DNA from: Candidatus Bathyarchaeia archaeon
Lineage (GTDB): Archaea > Thermoproteota > Bathyarchaeia > Bathyarchaeales > Bathycorpusculaceae
Length of the DNA: 57,872 bases
Reading direction: 5' to 3'
Assembly (NCBI GenBank): GCA_050010515.1
Contig: JBEKKX010000015.1
Span: forward strand, 1-57,872
Below the pieces are notes generated by a model. That model did no database searches. It was given only the letters and a program-made list of their open reading frames with translations, and was not told the DNA's origin. The translations under genes and the position numbers were made by a program. Shown one piece after another: positions 4,708-32,536 of the stretch; the stretch's first letter is position 1; each line of letters begins with the position of its first letter.

Positions 4708-4887
4708 TTTACGGTCTCGCTATACGCTAAATTCTATTTTAATCGCTTTATTCTGTTATGTGCTCACTTGAAATAAATGCAAATAAATGCTCATTAACTT
4801 AACGGGAAAATTCAAATTTTTGATTGCACAAAACAGCCTTTTTAAGTCCTAAACAATGTTAGCATCACAATTCAATTGATATATAAG

Positions 4888-4961
4888 TGGACCGGGGGGG
4901 ATTTGAACCCCCGACCTCTTGAGTGCAAGTCAAGCGTTCATACCAGCTGAACTACCGGCCC
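4888..4961 (-). tRNA. tRNA-Ala(TGC)
   Basis: Cloverleaf GGGCCGG...CTTGA-CTTGCAC-TCAAG...GGTTCAAATCC...CCGGTCCA with a G3:U70 pair; no intron. Confidence 0.95.
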
Positions 4962-21508: not shown

Positions 21509-21710
21509 ATAGCACTCACCACACTACCTTGCGTTTTCCACTCCAATAAATTTTATGTTACAAAAAATGCTTATTTTATGGTGCTGACAGGCACTTTTCA
21601 AGTGGCTGCTCTGTTGAATGTGACACAACCAAATCGTATTGGTACCTTTAAAAGTTTAAATGATGGAAAACAAACTAAATGGAATCAGCCAGCAAAAAAA
21701 GTGGCAATTT

Positions 21711-21785
21711 GCCGGGGTAGCCTAGCCTGGCTAGGGCGCCAGACTCATAATCTGGTTTTCGAGGGTTCAAATCCCTCTCTCGGCA
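21711..21785 (+). tRNA. Elongator tRNA-Met(CAT), hybrid of host 5' half and element-supplied intronless 3' half (attL)
   Basis: GCCGGGG/TCTCGGC acceptor, CCAGA-CTCATAA-TCTGG anticodon arm and GAGGG-TTCAAAT-CCCTC T arm. G1-C72 argues against initiator. Confidence 0.88.
21740..21755 (+). repeat. attL core (16 bp CAGACTCATAATCTGG)
   Basis: Perfect direct repeat with 31433-31448. Confidence 0.92.
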
Positions 21786-21836
21786 CTAAACAACCGCAAT
21801 TCGCAAAAGAAACCCAAATTAAGCCGCTAATTCAAC

Positions 21837-21848
21837 ATGGTAAACAAT
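21837..21848 (+). repeat. ATGGTAAACAAT arm-type repeat (P' side)
   Basis: Identical copies at 31367 and 31391; 11/12 match at 23175. Confidence 0.6.
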
Positions 21849-21903
21849 TAACAGCAACAGCAAACGCTTTATTCTATGCCATATTAAATGAAGGTGTTCA
21901 AGC

Positions 21904-22761
21904 ATGACCGAAAATGAAGACGTATTTGCTAACTTATTCACCGATTGGATGTTAAACGAAAAAGACCCAAAAAGAAAAGTTAATGCTAAAGTTGCTCATG
22001 AGTATGCAAGAATAGCACACAAATTTACTTCATATGCTAAATTATCTGGGCTATTCAGTAGTGACCCAGAACAGCGAAAAGCTATGATTCAAGGTAAAGT
22101 TAAGGAATTCTTAGACATCGAGAACCCTCATAGCTACAGAAACAACTTAGCCGCACTAAAAAAACTGTTTCAGTTTATCGGTGAAGACGAAGTTATGGCA
22201 GATTTCAAGTACAAGGCAATCATGCCAACATTCAGCATTAAAACCCCAGACCTAAAAGATATGGTAACATTCGGAAAAGCAATACAGAACGAAAGAATCC
22301 AAGTTTACTATTATCTTGGAGTCGTTAGCGCAATCAGACCTGAACACCTTTTGAGATTGACCGTTAAACTCTTTGACACAAAAAACAACATGATAAACAC
22401 CTTCATGAAGACTTTCGGCAAAAAGAATTTCTTCTTTAGCTTCTATACCCCAGAGATTAAGCCATTGATTGAGCAATACATAAGCACAATTCCAGATAAC
22501 GAATTGCTGTTTCCAATTGGCTCACGATACATAATTAAGGAATTTGAAAAAACAAGTAAACAATGCGGAATAAAGATAACTCCAAAAATGATGCGTAAAT
22601 TCTCAACAAATTGGTTAAGAAGACATGGCATGATAAGCGAAGACGTTGACGTTATAACCTCTCATGTGCCTAAATCTGTAGTTGCAAAAAACTATCTTGA
22701 TGTCTCACGCATACATGAAGAATATGACCGAGCAATGACCGACTTAAAACTCGGTCTCTAA
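21904..22761 (+). CDS. int: Tyrosine recombinase/integrase
   Basis: Catalytic R (SAIRPEH), K-x-x-R (KMMRK), H (ITSH) and Y (KNYL); lies next to attL. Confidence 0.88.
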   Translation: MTENEDVFANLFTDWMLNEKDPKRKVNAKVAHEYARIAHKFTSYAKLSGLFSSDPEQRKAMIQGKVKEFLDIENPHSYRNNLAALKKLFQFIGEDEVMADFKYKAIMPTFSIKTPDLKDMVTFGKAIQNERIQVYYYLGVVSAIRPEHLLRLTVKLFDTKNNMINTFMKTFGKKNFFFSFYTPEIKPLIEQYISTIPDNELLFPIGSRYIIKEFEKTSKQCGIKITPKMMRKFSTNWLRRHGMISEDVDVITSHVPKSVVAKNYLDVSRIHEEYDRAMTDLKLGL

Positions 22762-22787
22762 AACCCCTTCTTTTATTAAGTTTTTTT

Positions 22788-23024
22788 TTAAGATTCATCC
22801 ATTTCCTTTCTTCTTTTGACAAACTTATCTTTGTAAATAAAACCATATGCTATGAAAAACACAGCCGCACCATATAATAAGTAGCTATATGGTGCGTAGA
22901 TAAAACGTAATTGCGCTCCAGCTATAAGAAACGCTCCACCTAAAGCAATGCAACCCAGAAACAGACCAAGCCATATCTGAACGTCAGTTTGAATCCTTGC
23001 AAATCTCTTTTCTTCATCATTCAT
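22788..23024 (-). CDS. Small 2-TM membrane protein (element)
   Basis: 78 aa, two hydrophobic helices and a basic tail. Confidence 0.65.
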   Translation of the reverse strand: MNDEEKRFARIQTDVQIWLGLFLGCIALGGAFLIAGAQLRFIYAPYSYLLYGAAVFFIAYGFIYKDKFVKRRKEMDES

Positions 23025-23147
23025 AATTGCATCATATACATAAGTTACTTATCAATTTTTTTGAGTAGCTTCTACACAACACTAACATAATCAGTTAAAT
23101 ATACCCATAAAATACAGTCTTTTATCTATTATACATGTTACATAACG

Positions 23148-23378
23148 AAGACGCTTAATTATATTGGTTAATAATTGGTAAACAATCACCTGACTAATTG
23201 TCTGTCGAGTGTTTACCATTAACTTAAATGTGCGGGAGCGGCTAAAGCATGGACAAATTAGTTGTGTTTTTGACTCAAAGACACATTTTACAACTACTCC
23301 CCTACCTGTTACTGTACAACACAACTACAATTGGCAAGCTCCCCATCAAAAAAATAGACATATAGAATTAAGCGTCTT
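23148..23378. other. Structured intergenic segment closed by a 13-bp inverted repeat
   Basis: aagacgcttaatt (23148) / aattaagcgtctt (23366). Internal stems tggtaaaca/tgtttacca, gggag/ctccc and tagttgt/acaacta. Confidence 0.55.
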
Positions 23379-23395
23379 ATTGGTTAAGTTATTGC

Positions 23396-23965
23396 TTAAC
23401 TATTGTTTTGCCTATTGTGGCGAACTTTAACCCATGATTTGCCACAACTACGACATCGCCACTGTTCGCCTTTACTTATTACTGTGTCACAACCGCACTC
23501 TATACATAATGGTCTTTGTGGCTTAATTGTTGGTTGGCTTGTCTCCATGACACATGCCGACTTTTCACTTTCAAAACCTTCATATTGTAATGGATATGCT
23601 TGATTCCATAATTGCTTTAAAAATTGGTAATTGGCTAATAGTGCACTATATGATTCTGTGTTGTTCAAGTTATTTTGTTCGTAAACATAGCCTATGTGAC
23701 ACAAAAGGCTTAGATAAGTTTCATAGCCTAAACTGTCACTAATAAATGAAGTGATAAAATCCCGTATGCTTTCTTTTTGGGGTTCGTCTAAAATTAAATA
23801 TTGTTCTGGAATTGTTAGTTGACTCCAATCGTATCCATAAATTGTTTTCTTGCGTTGTTTTTCGTGCAATTCAAAAAATCTCTCTTCATTAATATGGGTT
23901 TTATCTATCGTTACCATATCGTAAAGTTTATCCCTTAACCAATAAACTAAATTATTTTGGTACAT
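23396..23965 (-). CDS. Hypothetical protein with C-terminal Zn ribbon (element)
   Basis: CIECG...WRCRSCG motif; GGTGA SD. Confidence 0.7.
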   Translation of the reverse strand: MYQNNLVYWLRDKLYDMVTIDKTHINEERFFELHEKQRKKTIYGYDWSQLTIPEQYLILDEPQKESIRDFITSFISDSLGYETYLSLLCHIGYVYEQNNLNNTESYSALLANYQFLKQLWNQAYPLQYEGFESEKSACVMETSQPTIKPQRPLCIECGCDTVISKGEQWRCRSCGKSWVKVRHNRQNNS

Positions 23966-24049
23966 TTAATCATCACCTTTTAGTATTTGCTTTCTTCTAA
24001 CTTTGTTGCGTTTCTTTTGGCTTTTAAAGCACATAAAGTATAAACGCAT
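23966..24049 (-). CDS. Possible 27-aa basic peptide filling the operon gap
   Basis: MRLYFMCFKSQKKRNKVRRKQILKGDD, with TAAATG junctions on both sides. Confidence 0.35.
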   Translation of the reverse strand: MRLYFMCFKSQKKRNKVRRKQILKGDD

Positions 24050-24373
24050 TTACACCAAATCCTTACAATTTTCGTTTTGGTTTGGGCTAACTTTAATCAA
24101 TGCAGAGTCAAGCAATTTTTGCCTACGTTCACTAAAACGCTGCAAATCGAAATTTAAAGCGCATGTTTCATTGCAAAAGCGTGAGCCTCTATTTTTTGTT
24201 AATTCTGCCTTGCAAAACAAGCAAAAAAAGTTATTTTTATTTCGCTTCCTCAAACTGCTTCTACAAGTTTCACAGTAAAAAAAAGGGTGACACTGCTTAT
24301 GGCAAGTTTGCTTAAACAATTCACCGCATTTTTTGCACGTTTTTTCAACTGTTTTTGACATTTTGTACCTCAC
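24050..24373 (-). CDS. Cys-rich multi-zinc-finger protein (element)
   Basis: CKKC, CETC, CLFC and FCNETC motifs. Confidence 0.65.
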   Translation of the reverse strand: MRYKMSKTVEKTCKKCGELFKQTCHKQCHPFFYCETCRSSLRKRNKNNFFCLFCKAELTKNRGSRFCNETCALNFDLQRFSERRQKLLDSALIKVSPNQNENCKDLV

Positions 24374-24566
24374 TTATTGGTTTAGCGATTAATGTTGATT
24401 CGACTTTTGCAAACCGTTGTTGTTTCCAAATTAAGTAATATTCACGTCGATGTGCTTTATTATGTTCAAAATAATTCCTTTCCTGACAATGGTAGGTGCA
24501 AAACTTTTGGAAATTGCATTTAGGCATAAACCATTTGCCACAGTTTTTGCAAACTTTGTTTTTCAT
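24345..24566 (-). CDS. Small zinc-finger protein (element)
   Basis: CKNCG...FCTYHC; GGTGA SD. Confidence 0.65.
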   Translation of the reverse strand: MKNKVCKNCGKWFMPKCNFQKFCTYHCQERNYFEHNKAHRREYYLIWKQQRFAKVESTLIAKPISEVQNVKNS

Positions 24567-24706
24567 TTTAAGTCACCTTATGTAAGTATGTAATTTGACC
24601 CAGAGATTGCAAGGGAAAACATGGGTAAACCCTTGCATATTGGTGAGATTCTCTGGGTTTTTTTGACGCATATATAGAGTTGGTTTTTGTAAGCATAATT
24701 AACCAC

Positions 24707-25300
24707 TTATGAAACGTTAAACGTGTTGCTGTTTGATGGGATACCGCCGCCTCTGCATTGAATGTGTGTCGAACTTGTTGCGGCATGAACCACGACTTCA
24801 CCAGTCCAAACGCCATGCATAAATTGGATAAAGGGAGGGTCGGTTAACCGTTGATTTGGGATTGTTCCAGCAATCGTTATCAAAGTCGAAACTATGCCAC
24901 ACATCGCATTAAAATCATCTCTCCCATCTTTTCCATTAAGCACATTGCCGTTTGAATCACACGCTGAAATTGAAACGGGAAAAGACACTTCGTGAGTTTG
25001 GTCGCTAATATTTGTAAACGTGAAGTGGTCAACGTTGTAGAAATCGTTAGCGGCGACTCCACTTCTAATTTGAATGGCAAAAAGCATCGAATCGTAAAAT
25101 ACGTCTGAACACACAGTATAAGTTATTGGTGGGATTTGTCCACTGTATAAAATAAATGTTAAGTTGTCAGGGTTTAAAATGTATGCATTGGCAATTACAT
25201 TAAAGCTTAAAATGCTGTCAGCGATGACATCATAAACGATAAATTTCGTGTGACCCTCAATTTCGCTTGGTTGCACATTAACAGTTAAGTAAGTAGCCAT
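24707..25300 (-). CDS. Hypothetical beta-rich protein (candidate structural protein)
   Basis: 197 aa rich in V/I/T/N/F with few Lys; SD AAGGCG upstream. Confidence 0.65.
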   Translation of the reverse strand: MATYLTVNVQPSEIEGHTKFIVYDVIADSILSFNVIANAYILNPDNLTFILYSGQIPPITYTVCSDVFYDSMLFAIQIRSGVAANDFYNVDHFTFTNISDQTHEVSFPVSISACDSNGNVLNGKDGRDDFNAMCGIVSTLITIAGTIPNQRLTDPPFIQFMHGVWTGEVVVHAATSSTHIQCRGGGIPSNSNTFNVS

Positions 25301-25314
25301 TTTTTAATCGCCTT

Positions 25315-25911
25315 TTATGATGGATTATTAATGAATTTTGACACGTTTGTTCTGAAAACATCGCCTTCTATAGCATCGGTTTCAACAGCATCATAGAAAT
25401 AACCCGTTTGCTTCGATAGTTCGTTTGCTTCTTGTGCGGTTATCAATTCAGGTTCAAATTTTTCAACTATGCAATAGTCGCAATCGTTTAGTGGCAGACT
25501 TGTGATAAAGCCTTTATTTATGTCTCGCAAATAATATTTGTTAATTGCAACTAATTCGCCTTGAATGTTCATTTTACTGTCGTTGAATGTTATGTAAAGA
25601 AAAGCGTTATCAGGATTATCTTTTATTGTTGCTGTAACCTTTTGCTTAAAGAATAACTTTTCAATTAAACCACGTTTCTTTAATGAAGGCACAGTGTCGT
25701 ATGTGAGAATGTAGAATGTTGCTGTTTTAGTTAATCCTCTTTGTTCTGGAGATTCCCATGTAGTTATAGGCTCACTTTTTATCCATATACCTTTAGCCTT
25801 ATTGAATTTGCTTGTGGTTGTCACTGTTCGCATGTCAATTTTTGTTTTACCTTCGACTAAATGAACTGCCCAAAACGATGATGATTCGATTTTATCGTAA
25901 ATTTTACTCAT
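25315..25911 (-). CDS. Hypothetical protein (element)
   Basis: 198-aa ORF in a tightly packed operon. Confidence 0.7.
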   Translation of the reverse strand: MSKIYDKIESSSFWAVHLVEGKTKIDMRTVTTTSKFNKAKGIWIKSEPITTWESPEQRGLTKTATFYILTYDTVPSLKKRGLIEKLFFKQKVTATIKDNPDNAFLYITFNDSKMNIQGELVAINKYYLRDINKGFITSLPLNDCDYCIVEKFEPELITAQEANELSKQTGYFYDAVETDAIEGDVFRTNVSKFINNPS

Positions 25912-25912
25912 T

Positions 25913-26536
25913 TTAATCTTTCACCTTAATTTTCATTTCTAATTTCTTTTGCAACTTACGCTTTTGAAATGCTTCTTGCGTTTCGCCTTGTGGGTTTTCT
26001 GTACCTATGCGTTTAGGTGAACGCCACGCTGATAAAAGACTCATTTTACCCGTTTGTGGGTTTAAAGTAGGTTCAAACTCTATATCAAATTTATCGCTTT
26101 TCAAACTCTTTTTAGCGACTTTACCCAATTGATTTTTAAGTTCTGGGTCATTTTTAGCCATTTCGTTAATTGCCAAAATTGCTTGCTCTGCCGTGTCATA
26201 TTCCCCTTCTTTATTTTGTTCGTTATTTTGGCTAAAAATTGACGCTTTGTTATGTTCAAGTTCATAATCCCGAACAGCTTCTAAAGTTGACGCACATCCA
26301 TATTTTGCTGACTTTTCTTTAAGTCTCTGTTCAGCAATTATGTTTAAGTCGCCTTTCAATTCTTCGACTTCACTCTGCAAATTATCTCTCTCACTTTTTA
26401 GGTCTTCGTTGGCTAATTTGGTGTCTTCGCTCTCACTAAGCATTTTCTTTAATTTGCCAATTGCTTCTTTATCACCCGTTATTTTTACCTTTACATTTTC
26501 AATATTTTGTTTAACCTCAATTTCGTCATCACTCAT
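25913..26536 (-). CDS. Coiled-coil protein (element)
   Basis: Heptad-like LANEDLKSERDNLQSEVEELKGDL segment. Confidence 0.7.
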   Translation of the reverse strand: MSDDEIEVKQNIENVKVKITGDKEAIGKLKKMLSESEDTKLANEDLKSERDNLQSEVEELKGDLNIIAEQRLKEKSAKYGCASTLEAVRDYELEHNKASIFSQNNEQNKEGEYDTAEQAILAINEMAKNDPELKNQLGKVAKKSLKSDKFDIEFEPTLNPQTGKMSLLSAWRSPKRIGTENPQGETQEAFQKRKLQKKLEMKIKVKD

Positions 26537-26539
26537 TTT

Positions 26540-26776
26540 TTAACCTTCTATTTTTATGTTTTTGTTAGGGTTTTTTGAACAAACAGTGACATCCCCTAAC
26601 GAAATGCCATTATTTTCTTTTTTAACTTCGACTTTCCAACAGACCAACTGCTTATCATAACTAAGGCACACGCATGATTTTTTATTGCATTCTGGGTTTT
26701 GCGGTCTAAGAGATGTGCCTTTTGGTATCGGAATAGCAATATCTTTACCGTTGACATTCACGATTATTTTTGGCAT
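26540..26776 (-). CDS. Hypothetical Cys-containing protein (element)
   Basis: 78-aa ORF abutting its neighbours. Confidence 0.6.
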   Translation of the reverse strand: MPKIIVNVNGKDIAIPIPKGTSLRPQNPECNKKSCVCLSYDKQLVCWKVEVKKENNGISLGDVTVCSKNPNKNIKIEG

Positions 26777-27148
26777 TTATGCGCCTCTGTGACCGTCACG
26801 TATGTCTTCTTTACCTACACTTTTTGGCAAACCACTGCTTTTTTGACCCGTCACGACAGAACTTGATATTACTTCGTGTTCCTTGCAAAAACGACTCATT
26901 TCACTAAATTTAATACTGTCTGAATTTCCAGCTTTAAGTTGTGGTGCAATTTTGCCTTCACTTTCAACTGTGTAAACGTCTGGATTTGCTGGGTCATTTG
27001 ATAATTCACGGACATCAACGTCATTAACCGATGATTTTAAAGTTTCTTTATCGCCTATCAACGCAATATTTGCATCCATATAGCCCTTTAATCCAGACTT
27101 ATTATGTGCCGCATTATCGCCTTGATTTTGTTTTTGTTCATCAACCAT
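26777..27148 (-). CDS. Hypothetical protein (element)
   Basis: 123-aa ORF; GGAG SD. Confidence 0.65.
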   Translation of the reverse strand: MVDEQKQNQGDNAAHNKSGLKGYMDANIALIGDKETLKSSVNDVDVRELSNDPANPDVYTVESEGKIAPQLKAGNSDSIKFSEMSRFCKEHEVISSSVVTGQKSSGLPKSVGKEDIRDGHRGA

Positions 27149-27150
27149 AT

Positions 27151-27384
27151 TTATTTTTCATCTCCTTTTTTACTTAATTTTTGCGCTTCGTGGTTGAAAT
27201 CGCCAATCGGTTCTTCTATGCGATTAGCCATTTTTTGATTAATTGTAACCGTTTGCGAATAACTGATTTCTTGACTCATTAAATCCCTAAGTAAATCTGA
27301 TTGGTCTTTGTTGGTTGCAACTGCCAATTCCCTAAAACTTTCGGCTACATTCTCTTCTATATGCAACATTTTACGTTTAGTCAT
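27151..27384 (-). CDS. Ribbon-helix-helix (CopG-like) DNA-binding protein
   Basis: RKMLHIEENVAESFRELAVATNKDQSDLLRDLM pattern; first gene of the leftward operon. Confidence 0.65.
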   Translation of the reverse strand: MTKRKMLHIEENVAESFRELAVATNKDQSDLLRDLMSQEISYSQTVTINQKMANRIEEPIGDFNHEAQKLSKKGDEK

Positions 27385-27821
27385 TAATTATCACAGTGTT
27401 ATAGTCTAACAAACTACTATATAAATGTTTTTATTACAATTAACAATATTAATTAATGTTAAAATTACATAATTACTTAAGTAAAGTTGTAAAAACTACA
27501 ATAAAACCATAACATTTAAATATAACGCTGTTATAATTATTATTGTTAACTACTGCCATTGTTAACGCCTTTGTTTCGGGTGTGGTTCTGGGTTACCCAC
27601 ATAAGCAAAAAACCCTTTTCGCTAATATGTCTTTTAGCGTACATATATCTTTTTTAGATATGTACGTTTTTCGACCCTTACAACTTTTTTGTTATTAAAC
27701 AACAAGTGTTAAAGTGCAACCAAAAGATTTAAAAAGGCTAAACTACACTTTATAAGTGTAAGTTTCATTTGAAACAAAGCAGTTAAATAATTGCTTAAAT
27801 CAAAACAAAGGATATGAAAAA
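27385..27821. promoter_or_regulatory. Divergent AT-rich control region of the element with several short hairpins
   Basis: TATA-like boxes on both strands; hairpins such as cgtacatatatct/agatatgtacg and acactt/aagtgt. Confidence 0.5.
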
Positions 27822-28253
27822 ATGGCACAAGAAACATTAACTACACAAATTAAAATTATTGATAATAGACAACGCTCTGCACGATACGCTAAACGAAACA
27901 AATTAAAGATAAAGTGCCGAATAGAAGCACGAAAATATCCGTTAAATGAATGTTGCGAATTTTGTGGTTCAACCGAACACTTAGAGAGGGCGCATTTTAA
28001 CTACAATATCCCAGAACTGTTCATTACTGCTTGCAAACAATGCCATAAGTGGTGTGACCGCAAACACGCAAGCACCTACAAAGGCGACAGACGACTCACA
28101 TTAAAACAAGCCCGACAGTTCGCATATCATTTAGGCACATATGACAAGTATTTTGACATGCAAGGTCAACCATTAGACAAATCCATGTATAAACAACTTA
28201 AACCCATAAGAGTTTACGAAGGCGATAAATTAGTGGAAGTGAGATATGAGTAA
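27822..28253 (+). CDS. HNH-like endonuclease
   Basis: CEFCGSTEHLERAH...ITACKQCH motif. Confidence 0.7.
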   Translation: MAQETLTTQIKIIDNRQRSARYAKRNKLKIKCRIEARKYPLNECCEFCGSTEHLERAHFNYNIPELFITACKQCHKWCDRKHASTYKGDRRLTLKQARQFAYHLGTYDKYFDMQGQPLDKSMYKQLKPIRVYEGDKLVEVRYE

Positions 28254-28474
28254 GTTTAGTTAAGTAATTGTTTAATTGGTTAACTTGGCGAAAAGCGCAA
28301 AAATTGAGCTTATCCCTGAACTTACTATGGTCTGAGTTCCGTGTATTCTGCCATGTGCGTCACACGGCAAACCTATCAACCATATCACGCATTCACGCCT
28401 AAGCAATCAATCCAAGCACTAACTAACCAACAAACAGATTAACCAACTAATAACAAACAACTTAACTAAACTTA
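28251..28474. other. Rod-like structured segment closed by a 15-bp perfect inverted repeat
   Basis: taagtttagttaagt (28251) / acttaactaaactta (28460). Inner stems ttggttaa/ttaaccaa, cttgg/ccaag, tatggt/accata and ccgtgt/acacgg. Confidence 0.6.
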
Positions 28475-28696
28475 ACCATAATAATAATAACAAAATAACT
28501 AACAAAACTATACTTTATTTTTTTATTTATTAGGTTGACACACTAAAATAGGAAGGCAATTAAGTTATTGTTTAAATAAACTAACTACCGCTATATTATA
28601 ATATTTTAACTCATGTAATAACAAATAAATAGCTGTATGGATATAAGGGGTAAAGTATATATATAAGTTTTAGGTGTCGTAATTCTTGATATATGT

Positions 28697-29557
28697 ATGC
28701 CGATGCCAAAATATAAAAAGAAATCGTTAATTCAAATACCAATTATTCAACAGTTTATTAAGAATTATGACATAGTTAGCATTAGGCAAATATTTTATCA
28801 TTTAGTTATAAATCAAATTATCAAAAATGAACTTAAAAGTTATGAAATGGTTGATATGTTAGTAAATAATATGCGCTATGATAAGTTAATACCCTTCGAT
28901 TCAATTAGCGATATTACTAATAAATATGGTTCACCAACCTATAAAAATATTAATGAAGAAATAGAAGTAGTTTTAGAAAATTATCGTAGTAAATGGAATA
29001 ATTATTTTGATGATTATGTCGAAGTTTGGCTTGAAAAAGAAGCTTTATCAAATACAGTTTATCCCATAACTAACTTTTATGGAATTTATTTAAGAGTTAG
29101 CGGCGGCAGAACGAAAGTTAGTCAGGTTCACAGTTTTATTAATGATGCTAATTATTATGATGCGCCGACTACGATACTTTATTTAGGTGATTTTGACCCG
29201 ACAGGCTTAAACATAGATGAAAATTTAGAAAAGCAAATCCTCAAGCAAAAAGAATATATCCACTTTCCAGAACCCGTAAAGATAATCAGGTTAGCATTAA
29301 CAGAATCACAAACTAAGTTTTTGCCTAATAAATACCAACTTGCAAAACCCAAAGATGCCAATTCTAAAAAGTATATTGCGAAATACGGCAATAAAGTTTG
29401 GGAGTTAGATGCTTTAGACCCCAAAGAGTTACAACAAATCGTTAAGGATGTTCTTGAAAGTTACCGTCCAACAACAGACATTAATGACCTAATAGCTGAC
29501 GATAAAGACGAAGTTAAAAATATACGGGATAAAATAGGTTATAGTATTCCCCGTTAA
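28697..29557 (+). CDS. TopoVI-A/Spo11-like WHD-Toprim protein
   Basis: SIRQIFY (candidate catalytic Tyr), WLEKEA, YLGDFDPTG and WELDAL motifs. Confidence 0.75.
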   Translation: MPMPKYKKKSLIQIPIIQQFIKNYDIVSIRQIFYHLVINQIIKNELKSYEMVDMLVNNMRYDKLIPFDSISDITNKYGSPTYKNINEEIEVVLENYRSKWNNYFDDYVEVWLEKEALSNTVYPITNFYGIYLRVSGGRTKVSQVHSFINDANYYDAPTTILYLGDFDPTGLNIDENLEKQILKQKEYIHFPEPVKIIRLALTESQTKFLPNKYQLAKPKDANSKKYIAKYGNKVWELDALDPKELQQIVKDVLESYRPTTDINDLIADDKDEVKNIRDKIGYSIPR

Positions 29558-29578
29558 ATATACCTCTACCCTTATGCG

Positions 29579-29791
29579 TTTTTGACTTTTAATAATTTAG
29601 CCAATTTTAAACAAGGCTTGAGTTAAACGGTTATTAATGTTATTTGGAATTCTGCAAGAATCTTGCTGAAAACCAATCAAAAAACCCTAATAATTGCCGT
29701 TAATTGCCAATAAATAAAACCCTAAACTAAACGAATTATCCAATACTGGACAATTAGCCAGATTAAATTTAGGTTTAGGTTAAGTCAAAAA
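29579..29791. other. Third IR-closed intergenic segment
   Basis: tttttgactt (29579) / aagtcaaaaa (29782); inner cctaaac/gtttagg stem. Confidence 0.4.
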
Positions 29792-29987
29792 ATGCCTATG
29801 TGCAAAAGTGCCAAAAATTGACTAAAACGGGGCTTAAAACGGGCTTATTTTACCATTTAACTGTACAACAAGTCGCCGTTTCGCAAAATAGTTAAGGAAA
29901 AACGCTTAAATACCCTTTCGCCTTCTAATCTGCCACCTATTACAGGTTTAAAAACAAAAAAAAACAAAAAAGGTGATAAAACAAAAA

Positions 29988-31100
29988 ATGACAGAAAAAC
30001 AAAACACAAACAATGTATCTATCCAAAGCAGTTTCACAGTGCAAAACCTAATTGACGATATGAAAAAATGTTTAGGCTTTATAGTGTCGGCAGAGAGCGG
30101 AAGCGGTAAAAGCTATTTGGGATTCACGATTTGCAGAGAAGCAATGAAGGCAGAGAACAAAACAAGGATAATTATATTTTCGCCCAGCACAATCTATAAC
30201 CGCAAATTCGGCAGTTGTGACAATCTAAAGCTAATCAAGGTTGGCACGGCAGACTTTAGCCCCGTTGTTGACTACGATAAAGAAATGTTGGAAAGAGTAG
30301 CCAATGTTAGAGACACATTCTTTTTGAACACAGACAAGAAATACATGTTCAAGCGTTCATTATGGCTTGAGCAGTTGTTAGCCAATGACTCATTAAACCT
30401 CTGTTTTGAAATACATTACCTTAACTCACGGAAAGCTAAAACCTTCATTACCGAATGCTTAAAGCTGATTTTTGAGAGAGAACGAAAGAAACTTGAGCGA
30501 AACCCCGATTACGACTTTCACACTTTAGCTGTATTAGAAGAATGCCAAAATTCTTATGGCACGTATAATCTCAATGACGACTCAAGCCTTGAGGCTCTCG
30601 GAATCCTATCTATGGCTCGGACAGACTGCAACTTGCACTTTTTAGCTATAACTCAGAGATTGGCAGAGACAAGCGTTAAGGTGACTGAGCGGTTAAGGCT
30701 AATTTCGGGTCTCCAAATCGGCTATAATAATTTGAATCGTGTTAGGGCGCAAATAACCCCAGAACTGAGAGAATTAGTGCAGAGATTGCCACAAAAAACT
30801 TTCCTATACATCAACGGCAAAGATAACCCTATTTTCCAGATTCCGCAATACAGCTTTAAAGGCAAAATGACACAGATTAGACCAATGACACAACCGACAG
30901 AACAACCAAAAAAGAAAGATGGTTTTATTAAACAAATGAAACAATTGTTAAAGGCAATGTTTAGCGTGCCACAGCAATATCAACCACAAACACAGCAAAA
31001 CAATAATGAAGAGCAAAATAATGATGATATAGAGCAATCACAAGCCGATGGATTAATGACCGATGATTCCGACATAATGTTTCCAGAGGATGAATACTAA
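29988..31100 (+). CDS. P-loop ATPase of the HerA/FtsK superfamily (possible packaging or DNA-pumping ATPase)
   Basis: Walker A AESGSGKS, Walker B AVLEEC, R in SMART, sensor AITQRL; acidic Gln-rich tail. Confidence 0.75.
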   Translation: MTEKQNTNNVSIQSSFTVQNLIDDMKKCLGFIVSAESGSGKSYLGFTICREAMKAENKTRIIIFSPSTIYNRKFGSCDNLKLIKVGTADFSPVVDYDKEMLERVANVRDTFFLNTDKKYMFKRSLWLEQLLANDSLNLCFEIHYLNSRKAKTFITECLKLIFERERKKLERNPDYDFHTLAVLEECQNSYGTYNLNDDSSLEALGILSMARTDCNLHFLAITQRLAETSVKVTERLRLISGLQIGYNNLNRVRAQITPELRELVQRLPQKTFLYINGKDNPIFQIPQYSFKGKMTQIRPMTQPTEQPKKKDGFIKQMKQLLKAMFSVPQQYQPQTQQNNNEEQNNDDIEQSQADGLMTDDSDIMFPEDEY

Positions 31101-31198
31101 ATGATGGCAAACGATAATATTCTCTCAGTTAAAACGGGTTCTGAGAGTGAAATGAACGGACAAAAACCCAACAAAAATAAAAGGATGCGATAAAAAAA

Positions 31199-31448
31199 AT
31201 GATGGTAAAATGTCCAACATGCGGTATTAATGGTTCGGCACAAATTAGAGGTAATAGCGTAAGAGTCGGTCACTATGTCGGTTACAAAGGCGACACAAGA
31301 ATAGTTAATTGGCATTGCACAACCTTAGAAGATTTGAGCAAATTAAACAACTGCTTAAAAATCAATATGGTAAACAATAACGGTCACAAAATGGTAAACA
31401 ATGAACAGTTATCCATTGATTACCATGCGCCTCAGACTCATAATCTGG
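31199..31448 (+). CDS. N-terminal part of a Zn-ribbon ORF split by att (133 aa on the excised circle, joined to 21756-21907)
   Basis: CPTCG...GH...WH. QTHNL is read in the same frame at both att sites. Confidence 0.65.
31367..31402 (+). repeat. Two ATGGTAAACAAT arm-type repeats (P side)
   Basis: 31367-31378 and 31391-31402, identical to 21837-21848. Confidence 0.6.
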
Positions 31449-31533
31449 AGAACATAAATGGTGGCCAAACGCTCCTGTCCAGAAGTCGCGGGCTCGAAGC
31501 TAGAAAAAAGCGAGAATCCCGCTCCCGGCACCA
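31433..31533 (+). tRNA. attR: displaced 3' half of host tRNA-Met with two BHB introns (31451-31484 at 45/46; 31499-31516 at 59/60)
   Basis: BHB1 CTGG-AGA-ACA...TGT-CCAG-AAG; BHB2 CTCG-AAG-CT...AG-CGAG-AAT. Splicing gives AGGTC-GCGGG-CTCGAAT-CCCGC-TCCCGGC-A-CCA. Confidence 0.88.
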
Positions 31534-31880
31534 CTTATTTTTGATGCTTATGCCTAATTTTTGTGGCGAATTCCGTCAACAAATAGTAGGGTACCCCTCT
31601 GGGTAATGCTGGAAAACTCTGTTTTGGGTTGCTTTTTTGATTTGAAGCTTGAATCAGGCTTAGTCACCACTGACTTCCTTAAGCTGTATATAAAGCGCCG
31701 TGGAAAGGGAATAGAGTGACTAAACATGCAGGCAAAATTGCTGAGCGAATTAATTACCATTTGATCTCTTGCTGGAGTTTGACTGGTTATTTTGAAAGGC
31801 TGGCGTTTAGGCTTACTTTAATTTTGGAAACTGAAAGAAATTTAAGTGCGTTTAGTAGCTCACTAATTAGGTGTAATTTA

Positions 31881-32102
31881 TTGGTAGCAAAGGTTAAGGT
31901 TACTAAAGAAGGAATTCTTGTTCCAGAGCAGCTTTTCAGAGAAATGATTGGTACTTACGTTAAGATGGAGCAGATTTTAGCAACTTTAGAAGAGCTTGCA
32001 GACCCTGAGGCGTTAAAAGCGATTGAAAAAAGCAAGAAGCAGGTTGCTGAAGGCGAATACGTTGAATGCTCCATAAACGACTTGGAGAAAGTCCTGAAGT
32101 AA
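31881..32102 (+). CDS. Antitoxin upstream of RelE
   Basis: ILATLEELADPEALKAIEKS...GEY pattern; AGGTG SD before TTG-31881. Confidence 0.7.
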   Translation: MVAKVKVTKEGILVPEQLFREMIGTYVKMEQILATLEELADPEALKAIEKSKKQVAEGEYVECSINDLEKVLK

Positions 32103-32103
32103 T

Positions 32104-32370
32104 ATGCCTTACACTGCTAGGTTCTCAAAGGCATTTCTCAAAAAGTACCAAAGATTGCCGAGCGACATAAAGTCAAGAATAACTGAAAGTCTGAGAGAAA
32201 TTCTTATCAAACCTGACAATGGCATAATGTTGGTTGGTCCTTTGAGAGGCTTATGGAAGGTGAGGGTTGGAAAATACAGAATAATTTACGAGATTGATGA
32301 GAAACAAAACACTGTCGTTTTTCATGATGTTGAGCTTAGGAAAAATGTTTACAAACAGTTTCTGGGTTAA
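32104..32370 (+). CDS. relE: RelE/ParE-family toxin
   Basis: LRGLWKVRVGKYRIIYEID...RKNVY motif. Confidence 0.9.
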   Translation: MPYTARFSKAFLKKYQRLPSDIKSRITESLREILIKPDNGIMLVGPLRGLWKVRVGKYRIIYEIDEKQNTVVFHDVELRKNVYKQFLG

Positions 32371-32454
32371 TTAGGGTCATAATGACAGTTCTGTGCCGCT
32401 GACGGCAAGCTATGGGCTTTAGTTTTGCTTTAGGCGCGTTTGTGTTTGCTCGTA

Positions 32455-32536
32455 ATTGAAGCTGAGCTTTCTGGTCAAGAGTTCTGATTTGTTTCGAAAA
32501 ACGATTGGTCAGCTCACCTGTGAACTTGTGTTTCAA
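32455..32536 (-). pseudogene. Truncated RelE-like toxin 5' fragment
   Basis: KFTGELTNRFSKQIRTLDQKAQ overlaps the antitoxin stop; similarity ends at a direct repeat. Confidence 0.5.

Follow-up and report, generated by a model that had tools for sequence, protein, structure and literature searches.

The closest described case to the locus studied here comes from Caldiarchaeum subterraneum. According to Sugahara et al. 2012 (PLoS One 7:e32504, PMC3293823), a recombinase-bearing insertion sits at a tRNA-Thr gene of this archaeon, the tRNA part in its attachment site (attP) has an extra intron, and mobile genetic elements (MGEs) were proposed as intron vectors, a proposal repeated in a 2021 review (PMC8371274). 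The same review describes the "suicidal" integrases of the SSV (Sulfolobus spindle-shaped virus) type (PF16795), whose attP lies inside the integrase gene (int), and summarises earlier work (Williams 2002, Campbell 2003) that placed the core of tRNA-targeting integrases at a 7-nt anticodon loop with its palindromic stem. For thaumarchaea, the main text of Krupovic et al. 2019 (PMC6563490) reports that 10 of 39 tRNA integrations lie in intron-containing genes, with a median att length of 17 bp; it follows that introns do not prevent integration. Here we describe an integrated element of 9,693 bp that lies within a tRNA-Met(CAU) gene of a member of Bathyarchaeia, and that has replaced the two-intron 3' half of this gene by an intron-free one. 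The DNA analysed, hereafter the window, is a stretch of 57,872 nt that makes up contig C15 of the host genome (G000; 2.38 Mb in 66 contigs, 42.6% GC, CheckM-type completeness 98.5%). The two relatives with the most similar integrases are both named Candidatus Bathyarchaeota archaeon.

The element occupies positions 21756..31448. Three observations delimit it, namely an empty site in the relative G004, a dip in GC (0.31-0.39 inside the element vs 0.40-0.49 in the flanks) and contigs that bridge both junctions. It is bordered by an exact 16-nt repeat, CAGACTCATAATCTGG, of which the window contains exactly two copies, the attL core at 21740..21755 and the attR core at 31433..31448, both on the + strand. 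Allowing up to two mismatches, 0.03 matches were expected by chance, and 0 of 100 shuffles reached two. The core corresponds to tRNA positions 28-43, that is, to the anticodon stem-loop, in which CAGA and TCTGG enclose the 7-nt loop CTCATAA. In G004, the closest relative, the site is empty: it aligns to window positions 21647-21755 (99% identity) and 31433-31596 (93%), and these two alignments overlap by precisely the 16-nt core, which sets the bounds of the element. The attL junction is bridged by a 9.3-kb metagenome contig, and the attR junction by contigs of the sequencing runs X6 and X4.

This anatomy resembles in several respects that left by classical tRNA-targeting integrases as reviewed in PMC8371274, since the core is the anticodon loop, the tRNA is rebuilt from the element copy behind the host promoter and candidate arm-type repeats are present. 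In the classical cases, however, attP and attB usually match down to the 3' end of the gene, whereas here identity goes no further than position 43, and sequence, intron number and encoded CCA all differ between the two halves. The thaumarchaeal integrated MGEs are alike in having short att sites; no change of intron number is described for them in the main text of PMC6563490.

At attL, both ARAGORN and Rfam (RF00005, 62.6 bits) recognised a 76-nt intron-free tRNA-Met(cat) at 21711..21786 (+), for which a regular cloverleaf could be drawn. It is a hybrid. Its 5' part (21711..21739, +), with the acceptor 5' strand, the D arm and the start of the anticodon stem, is that of the host, conserved in relatives and contained in the stretch that aligns to G004 at 99%. 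Downstream of the core, the 3' half (21756..21785, +) is borne by the element and reads TTTTC-GAGGG-TTCAAAT-CCCTC-TCTCGGC-A, that is, variable loop, T arm, acceptor 3' strand and A73, with no encoded CCA, as in many other tRNA genes of G000. Compared with the mature host half, it shows 8 differences over ~33 positions. The CAU anticodon and A73 are retained, one T-stem pair is compensated and one new G-U pair appears in the acceptor stem. Thus, an earlier reading of the window, made from its sequence only, was right about the sequence of this half and about its rebuilding an intronless tRNA-Met, and only partly right in calling it structurally compensated, as the T-stem pair 50-64 is the only truly compensatory change.

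The source of the intron-free half was sought in the genus, the family and a class-level sample, and none was found. Throughout, comparisons covered the genus with 120 species representatives (119 besides G000), the family with 332 genomes (331 besides G000) and the class with a sample of 401. The element half had 0 matches with up to three mismatches in the 119 other genus genomes, 0 as an exact 22-mer in GTDB representatives and 0 as an exact 26-mer in IMG/VR. In nearly all listed genomes, the T loop of the native tRNA-Met is CTCGAAT, with C at position 54, and the element half has the usual T there. A tRNA-like locus elsewhere in the host genome (L079, G000:C50:4291-4376, - strand) reads GCCGAGA ... 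GAGGG-TTCGACT-CCCTC-TCTCGGC-A-CT, and 24 of the 27 positions of its 3' end, counted with the trailer, agree with the element 3' half. ARAGORN gave it as a poor 86-nt tRNA-Gln, Rfam gave no match and no tRNA fold was obtained for it; L079 could point to the origin of the intron-free half and is noted as a lead.

The other half of the split gene lies at 31449..31533 (+), downstream of attR, and is 93% identical to the contiguous gene of G004. After the core it reads AG, a 34-nt insert, GTC-GCGGG-CTCGAA, an 18-nt insert and T-CCCGC-TCCCGGC-A-CCA, ending at 31533. We rebuilt the attB site and the spliced genes by script and submitted them to ARAGORN. With both inserts in place, no tRNA was recognised in the rebuilt attB. 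Once they were removed, ARAGORN returned a tRNA-Met(cat) of 78 nt whose variable loop is AGGTC and which ends in CCA, the loop and the end being as the sequence-only reading had stated. Multi-intron tRNAs with non-canonical introns escape both ARAGORN and Rfam, the two tools used for tRNA calling.

The bulge-helix-bulge motif (BHB) is defined as a 4-bp central helix (H) between two 3-nt bulges (B), with outer helices h and h' (PMC7714728). Explicit pairing gave a perfect 4-bp central helix with two 3-nt bulges for both host inserts (CTGG/CCAG and CTCG/CGAG), and the same arrangement of H helix and 3-nt bulges for all tabulated element-borne introns discussed below. Cleavage of BHB motifs takes place inside each bulge, after its second nucleotide. 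The first host intron (31451..31484, +; 34 nt, position 45/46) has h' and an exonic h of 0 bp, so that it falls short of the strict hBHBh' form and belongs to the relaxed type HBh'. In the second (31499..31516, +; 18 nt, at 59/60 within the T loop), both outer helices are present, h being the 5-bp T stem and h' measuring 2 bp. With at least two Watson-Crick pairs required in both outer helices, the 59/60 intron and the element-borne introns at 37/38 are strict hBHBh' motifs. The claim of two well-formed BHB introns therefore stood for the 59/60 intron and had to be weakened for the 45/46 one. Minimum free energy folding of the whole rebuilt pre-tRNA did not by itself produce the BHBs. G000 has two separate PF01974 genes (99.5 and 75.3 bits), consistent with a two-subunit splicing endonuclease of the (alpha-beta)2 type. 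Such an enzyme accepts relaxed motifs in TACK (Thaumarchaeota, Aigarchaeota, Crenarchaeota and Korarchaeota) archaea, according to PMC7714728, and the endonuclease genes are thus consistent with a host equipped to splice relaxed BHB motifs.

Which of the two halves is native is answered by the relatives. The G004 gene is uninterrupted and carries both introns. A contiguous gene with the 45/46 intron was found in 20 of 20 loci of relatives, drawn from the genus and the order. Their 5' halves differ by at most two bases (in the D arm or at position 9) and their anticodon arms are the same, the one of L026 being one base off; the arm is followed by AG, an insert of 29-37 nt and a near-identical T arm and acceptor strand. 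Beyond these 20 loci, the 45/46 intron is present in every other row of the family listing, and the 59/60 intron is shared with G004, G075, G078, G130, G076, G074, G068, G091 and G110. A search for the anticodon arm with CGGCA 25-160 nt behind it gave a match in 252 of 332 family genomes. With the spacing reduced to the intron-free length of 18-40 nt, G000 alone remained (1 of 332 in the family, 1 of 401 in the class sample), so that an intron-free version occurs in 0 of the 331 other family genomes. As judged from these comparisons, the two-intron form of the host is the ancestral, native one, and the attR half is the displaced host half. The opposite polarity, with an intron-free native gene and an element-borne pseudo-tRNA at attR, is most improbable, and so is a mis-assembly of the metagenome-assembled genome. 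The 66 contigs of the assembly would leave room for the latter, but metagenome contigs bridge both junctions, and the attR half together with its flank matches an uninterrupted gene in G004.

The integrated form occurs in nature beyond this one assembly. The exact 22-mer of the element half led to four metagenome contigs at 99.1-100% identity, all of which contain attL and come from the same organism, and the integrated form is also present in contigs from 20 runs on peat or wetland, which belong to 19 studies; seven of these are flagged as possible sources. Depth and junctions in runs were checked on assembled contigs (Logan), which drop rare variants. In run X6, the depth of the element was 58, about equal to that of its flanks. 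No attB joint across the element was listed in the run contigs. Loose contig ends at 31433 (X9, X4) and at 21755 (X14) were considered as signs of excision and rejected; they lead into uninterrupted tRNA genes but carry single-nucleotide polymorphisms of other strains. One low-depth joint, from 31329 to 31433, was seen in run X14 (side 22).

Scans of CAU anticodons gave three such tRNAs in G000. The one at C2:85057 is initiator-like, since it pairs A1 with U72 and its anticodon stem has three G-C pairs at the base. At C10:19302, a gene with a canonical intron of 23 nt has D and T stems in common with tRNA-Ile(GAU) and probably encodes tRNA-Ile2. The attL hybrid is the third. A second elongator-type tRNA-Met, which could have supplied the function in place of the hybrid, was not found in G000 by these scans, and the GCCGGGG-type gene to which the hybrid belongs is single-copy in most relatives. 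Neither of the two results that the sequence-only reading had named as speaking against it, an intron-free gene in element-free relatives or an unexpressed hybrid backed up by a second tRNA-Met, was thus obtained. That the integrated form persists argues, indirectly, that the hybrid works, and the hybrid tRNA is presumably functional. Conversely, the hybrid might be a non-functional by-product, the elongator tRNA-Met being supplied by an undetected multi-intron or split gene. Cryptic tRNA genes do exist in G000, since only 45 tRNAs were found even with an intron search and several isoacceptors are missing, and the variable loop of the hybrid is unusual. We nevertheless regard this as very unlikely: no further CAU candidate appeared in the scans, the element-bearing strain is abundant in several samples, and the genomes G016 and G086 (see below) have no displaced host half, so that the element-type half must work there.

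Integrases more than 60% identical to the one of the element were found, among the 332 genomes, only in G081, G077 and G016 besides G000. These sister integrases are 62-75% identical to that of the window, and their elements sit in the same tRNA at the same core. The elements of G081 (~10.2 kb) and G077 (~5.3 kb) have both att sites. In both hosts, the displaced half at attR contains the 45/46 intron only. Their element halves at attL, in contrast to that of G000, are laden with introns: each has a strict hBHBh' intron at 37/38 (27 and 30 nt, respectively) and an intron at 45/46, and the G081 half has a further one of 30 nt at 68/69. The number of introns in the host half vs the element half is thus 2 vs 0 in G000, 1 vs 3 in G081 and 1 vs 2 in G077, and in every case the crossover lies 5' of the host introns. 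The canonical 37/38 intron begins with ATCTGG, which recreates the core in the DNA, and so leaves the target intact. In addition, introns at 68/69, the position used in the G081 and G016 element halves, occur in the native tRNA-Met of other genera and families, namely at L026 (G032:C126), where the H helix is CGCC/GGCG, and in G185, G187, G188 and G066.

The sister elements bear directly on what the intron-free half is for. The sequence-only reading had seen in it a selected counter-strategy, by which the element overcomes the intron protection of the tRNA gene. Such protection is a published hypothesis (Randau and Soll 2008, as quoted in PMC3293823); the host gene does have two introns where an ordinary 3'-end attP must match, and the element, while sharing only a 16-nt core, rebuilds a working-looking tRNA. 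Much of this reading was supported: the element is real, the crossover would fall 5' of both introns, the 3' half is swapped and the gene copy presumed to be expressed goes from two introns to none. A dedicated device is unlikely, though, as related elements bring two or three introns to the same core. With the crossover upstream of all host introns everywhere, there is nothing to bypass, and even a 37/38 intron spares the core. Moreover, the anticodon stem-loop is a classical integrase target (PMC8371274). Because it is the standard target and the introns lie 3' of it, introns were never an obstacle. The introns carried by the sister elements, the position of the crossover and the textbook anticodon-loop core together lead us to read the swap as a by-product.

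This locus is like the Caldiarchaeum case of Sugahara et al. 2012 in that a recombinase insertion lies by a tRNA gene, the intron content of attP and attB differs and a displaced tRNA fragment is left behind. As the published model has it, the attP part has a different intron number and passes its state to the expressed gene in G000, G081 and G077. In the Caldiarchaeum case, a 1.8-kb element replaced the 5' part and one intron was added, whereas here it is the 3' half that is exchanged, with the loss of two introns. Also unlike that case, sister elements with 0, 2 or 3 introns occur here at one site, and empty sites are available in related species.

Several genomes have a differing intron state and no intact element. 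In G016, the element half is of the same kind, the integrase contains stop codons, neither attR nor a displaced half was found within 40 kb, and host DNA resumes ~3.7 kb past the tRNA. G086 has a three-intron gene which, together with ~57 nt of flank, is 92.7% identical to attL of G081; neither an element nor a second half is present in it, and the host genes found beyond attR in G081, G077 and G016 follow within 0.9 kb. In G099, the T arm and the 45/46 intron are those of its own clade and equal those of G071; the gene also has a 37/38 intron, which is 2 nt different from that of the G081 and G086 halves and is absent from ten other listed members of the clade with this T arm. In G012, G093, G106 and G129, 37/38 introns are followed by native flanks. 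The patterns of G016, G086 and G099 would fit an element-mediated transfer of introns followed by loss of the element, with a direction either from host to element or from element to host. Through elements of this family, introns seem to enter and leave the tRNA gene.

The integrase of the window element (285 aa, 21904..22761, +) starts 118 nt past the tRNA end. It matches PF00589 (29.7 bits, cut-off 27.1) and PF16795 (28.1 bits, cut-off 27), and is 75% identical to the G081 integrase. At the other end of the element, the last open reading frame (ORF; 31199-31606) crosses the attR core, and its N-terminal part (31199..31432, +) is a CPxCG...WH zinc ribbon conserved in G081 and G077 and among profile relatives. 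We rebuilt attP by script for G000, G081 and G077, by joining the left side of attR, the core and the right side of attL. In all three reconstructions, one frame stays open through the zinc ribbon, the core (read as QTHNL) and the whole element tRNA half, introns included. The T loop is read in the identical frame (GSNP) in the three elements, and the frame then ends in a conserved C-terminal motif, LF[YF]xILxEGV, its TGA overlapping the integrase ATG as ATGA in 3 of 3 elements (21904-21907 in the window). In the integrated form, this C-terminal part corresponds to 21756..21907 (+), the frame being set at attR. On the attL side, the frame is open for 55, 99 and 94 codons in G000, G081 and G077 (shuffle probabilities 0.017, 0.005 and 0.003), and the other two frames are closed after 2-29 codons. 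The five element-borne introns of G081 and G077 measure 27, 33, 30, 30 and 30 nt, all multiples of three, which is weak evidence, as host introns, too, are most often 30 nt long.

A profile of the N-terminal part retrieved 146 proteins at E <=1e-3 among 1.84 billion representatives, of which we inspected 22. Many of these were stubs of ~90-190 aa with tails that read like translated tRNA genes. In one of them, P0010, the QTHNL core recurs, and behind it comes a tRNA-Met half that contains a 45/46 intron. Another, P0064 (365 aa), fuses the zinc ribbon to a PF16795 integrase domain (31 bits) that aligns to the window integrase. Two further relatives, P0015 and P0023, have an inserted CxxC...HEIHG...CxxCH segment that resembles an HNH nuclease motif and has no match in Pfam.

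These features recall the SSV-type integrases. Like SSV1/SSV2, pTN3 and pT26-2 as covered in PMC8371274, the element has a PF16795-type catalytic domain and a tRNA piece of attP in coding sequence, and integration splits an ORF; the zinc ribbon joined to an integrase in P0064 is a further likeness. Unlike in those systems, the ORF that is split and the integrase are here two frames joined by ATGA. The attP site thus lies in the ORF upstream of int, and the 285-aa catalytic ORF is whole after integration. Moreover, the embedded tRNA piece is here a whole 3' half, in which BHB introns are possible and which has diverged from that of the host. A tRNA half inside the predicted attP coding frame would be a new feature, one that the sequence-only reading had missed. 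The attP ORF would be translated, and the module would work like an SSV-type "suicidal" one, built from two overlapping ORFs.

We consider it likely that an element with an SSV-type-related integrase recombined at the anticodon stem-loop of the single-copy tRNA-Met and thereby swapped the 3' half of the gene, the change in introns being a by-product of the divergence between attP and attB. It rests on what was observed, namely the anatomy of the locus, the empty site, how well the host form is conserved and the sister elements, and would place the strand exchange within the anticodon stem-loop. A tyrosine recombinase related to archaeal SSV-type (PF16795) integrases would act on the elongator-type tRNA-Met(CAU), with the 7-nt anticodon loop as overlap and the stem halves as core sites, which would account for a shared core of 16 nt. 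All that lies 3' of the core in the expressed gene would then come from the element attP, and the variable loop, T arm and acceptor strand of the element would pair with the host 5' half into a normal cloverleaf, while the host 3' half with its 45/46 and 59/60 introns would be stranded 9.7 kb downstream. The change in intron number would follow from the difference between attP and attB 3' of the crossover, with no device against introns, and sister elements with two or three introns at the same core would bring additional ones into their hosts. In the episome, the tRNA half would lie inside an ORF made of the zinc-ribbon N-part, a tRNA-encoded linker and the conserved C-terminus. Integration would split this Int(N)-like ORF and separate int from its presumed operon promoter, the catalytic ORF staying whole. 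Excision, if conservative, would in principle restore both introns.

Several points weigh against this explanation. The PF16795 score, at 28.1 bits vs a cut-off of 27, is marginal. The labels "elongator Met" for the target and "Ile2" for the C10 gene rest only on resemblance to tRNA-Ile(GAU). A further, cryptic tRNA-Met is possible, given that multi-intron tRNAs are overlooked by the tools used. In the hybrid, the variable loop UUUUC replaces AGGUC and a G5-U68 wobble is added, either of which could weaken the tRNA, and no RNA runs containing the locus were listed. As to the free element, no attP or circular form was found in the 4 metagenome contigs and no go-back joint in contigs of 4 runs. 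Likewise, no attP-form protein was found in the protein collections, where the N-part retrieved, in 90% clusters, only the integrated form of the window. Finally, the attP ORF exists as a reconstruction, and kinship among the three elements means that their open frames are not independent.

A wider reading, to which we give slightly less than even credence, is that this element family forms a shuttle of BHB introns for the single-copy tRNA-Met gene within a Bathyarchaeia genus. Integration would remove introns (G000) or add them (G081, G077), and decay of the element, or homologous recombination between the two 3' halves, would fix the new state (G016, G086, G099). The same tRNA half, with its introns, would be translated in the episome as an Int(N)-like linker and transcribed and spliced in the chromosome. 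By splitting the ORF and severing the integrase from the operon promoter, integration would act as a two-gene "suicidal" switch.

The motif ATGGTAAACAAT has 7 matches in the window vs 0.53 expected, and 6 of the 7 lie inside the element. One copy is found by the attL core, on the P' side (21837..21848, +), and three are found next to the attR core, on the P side (31367..31426; 31367+, 31391+, 31415-). This set looks like arm-type integrase sites, and the four copies may be regarded as candidates for such sites. An inverted pair of the 12-mer ATGGTAAACAAT, with one mismatch each, lies at 23175..23219. As regards other genes, the element encodes a CopG-like ribbon-helix-helix protein (27151..27384, -; PF01402, 23.2 bits), a 286-aa protein (28697..29557, +) that matches phrog_6247, labelled "DNA topoisomerase" (E 8.7e-41), and a P-loop ATPase (29973..31100, +) with weak DUF87/HerA, PhoH and DnaC-like matches and 40% identity to an ORF of the G081 element. 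Capsid or conjugation proteins gave no Pfam or PHROGs match in the element, and IMG/VR contained no tblastn-confirmed relative of the integrase.

Just downstream of attR, ~860 bp (31597-32455) are absent from the empty-site locus of G004. This segment has an ORF for a ParE-like toxin (32104-32370, PF05016), preceded by an ORF of 128 aa (31716-32102), and is probably a separate small toxin-antitoxin insertion. Parts of it match G013, G012 and G022 at 73-76%, at times twice per contig. A stretch of ~35 nt within it (31620-31655) has many copies in the genus at 86-100% identity, with at least 9 places in G016, several in G004, G013 and G009, and a further 5 in G000. It resembles a short repeat that has dispersed, or the end of a miniature inverted-repeat transposable element. 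Elsewhere in G000, a distant integrase-like frame (G000:C7:22031-22660, - strand; tblastn E 2e-4) adjoins a 76-nt tRNA-Ser(gct) at C7:21865-21940, and may belong to another tRNA-integrated element. A twin of the tRNA-Ala(tgc) at window positions 4887-4961, equal to it in Rfam score, lies at the very start of another contig (G000:C46:20-94), which may reflect a duplicated contig end or strain heterogeneity.

Gain of an intron through the attP of an MGE is already known from Sugahara et al. 2012. Searches of open-access main texts turned up no description of a case in which an intron-free attP takes introns away, in which sister elements at one site differ in their intron load, or in which an integrase-module ORF contains BHB introns. 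The gain and loss of archaeal tRNA introns at non-canonical positions, and the protection that introns may give against integration, are unsettled questions. The locus and its relatives provide a natural series for one gene within one genus. It comprises empty sites, one element by which two introns are lost, others by which one or two are gained, and decayed elements in which the swap seems to have been fixed. This series shows that introns at 45/46, at 59/60 and even at 37/38 give no protection from this integrase family, and it makes the model of the MGE as an intron vector testable. A tRNA half with introns that overlaps the coding frame of an integration module would represent an unusual double constraint, and the two-ORF, tRNA-embedded module would extend the "suicidal" integrase architectures to the Bathyarchaeia.

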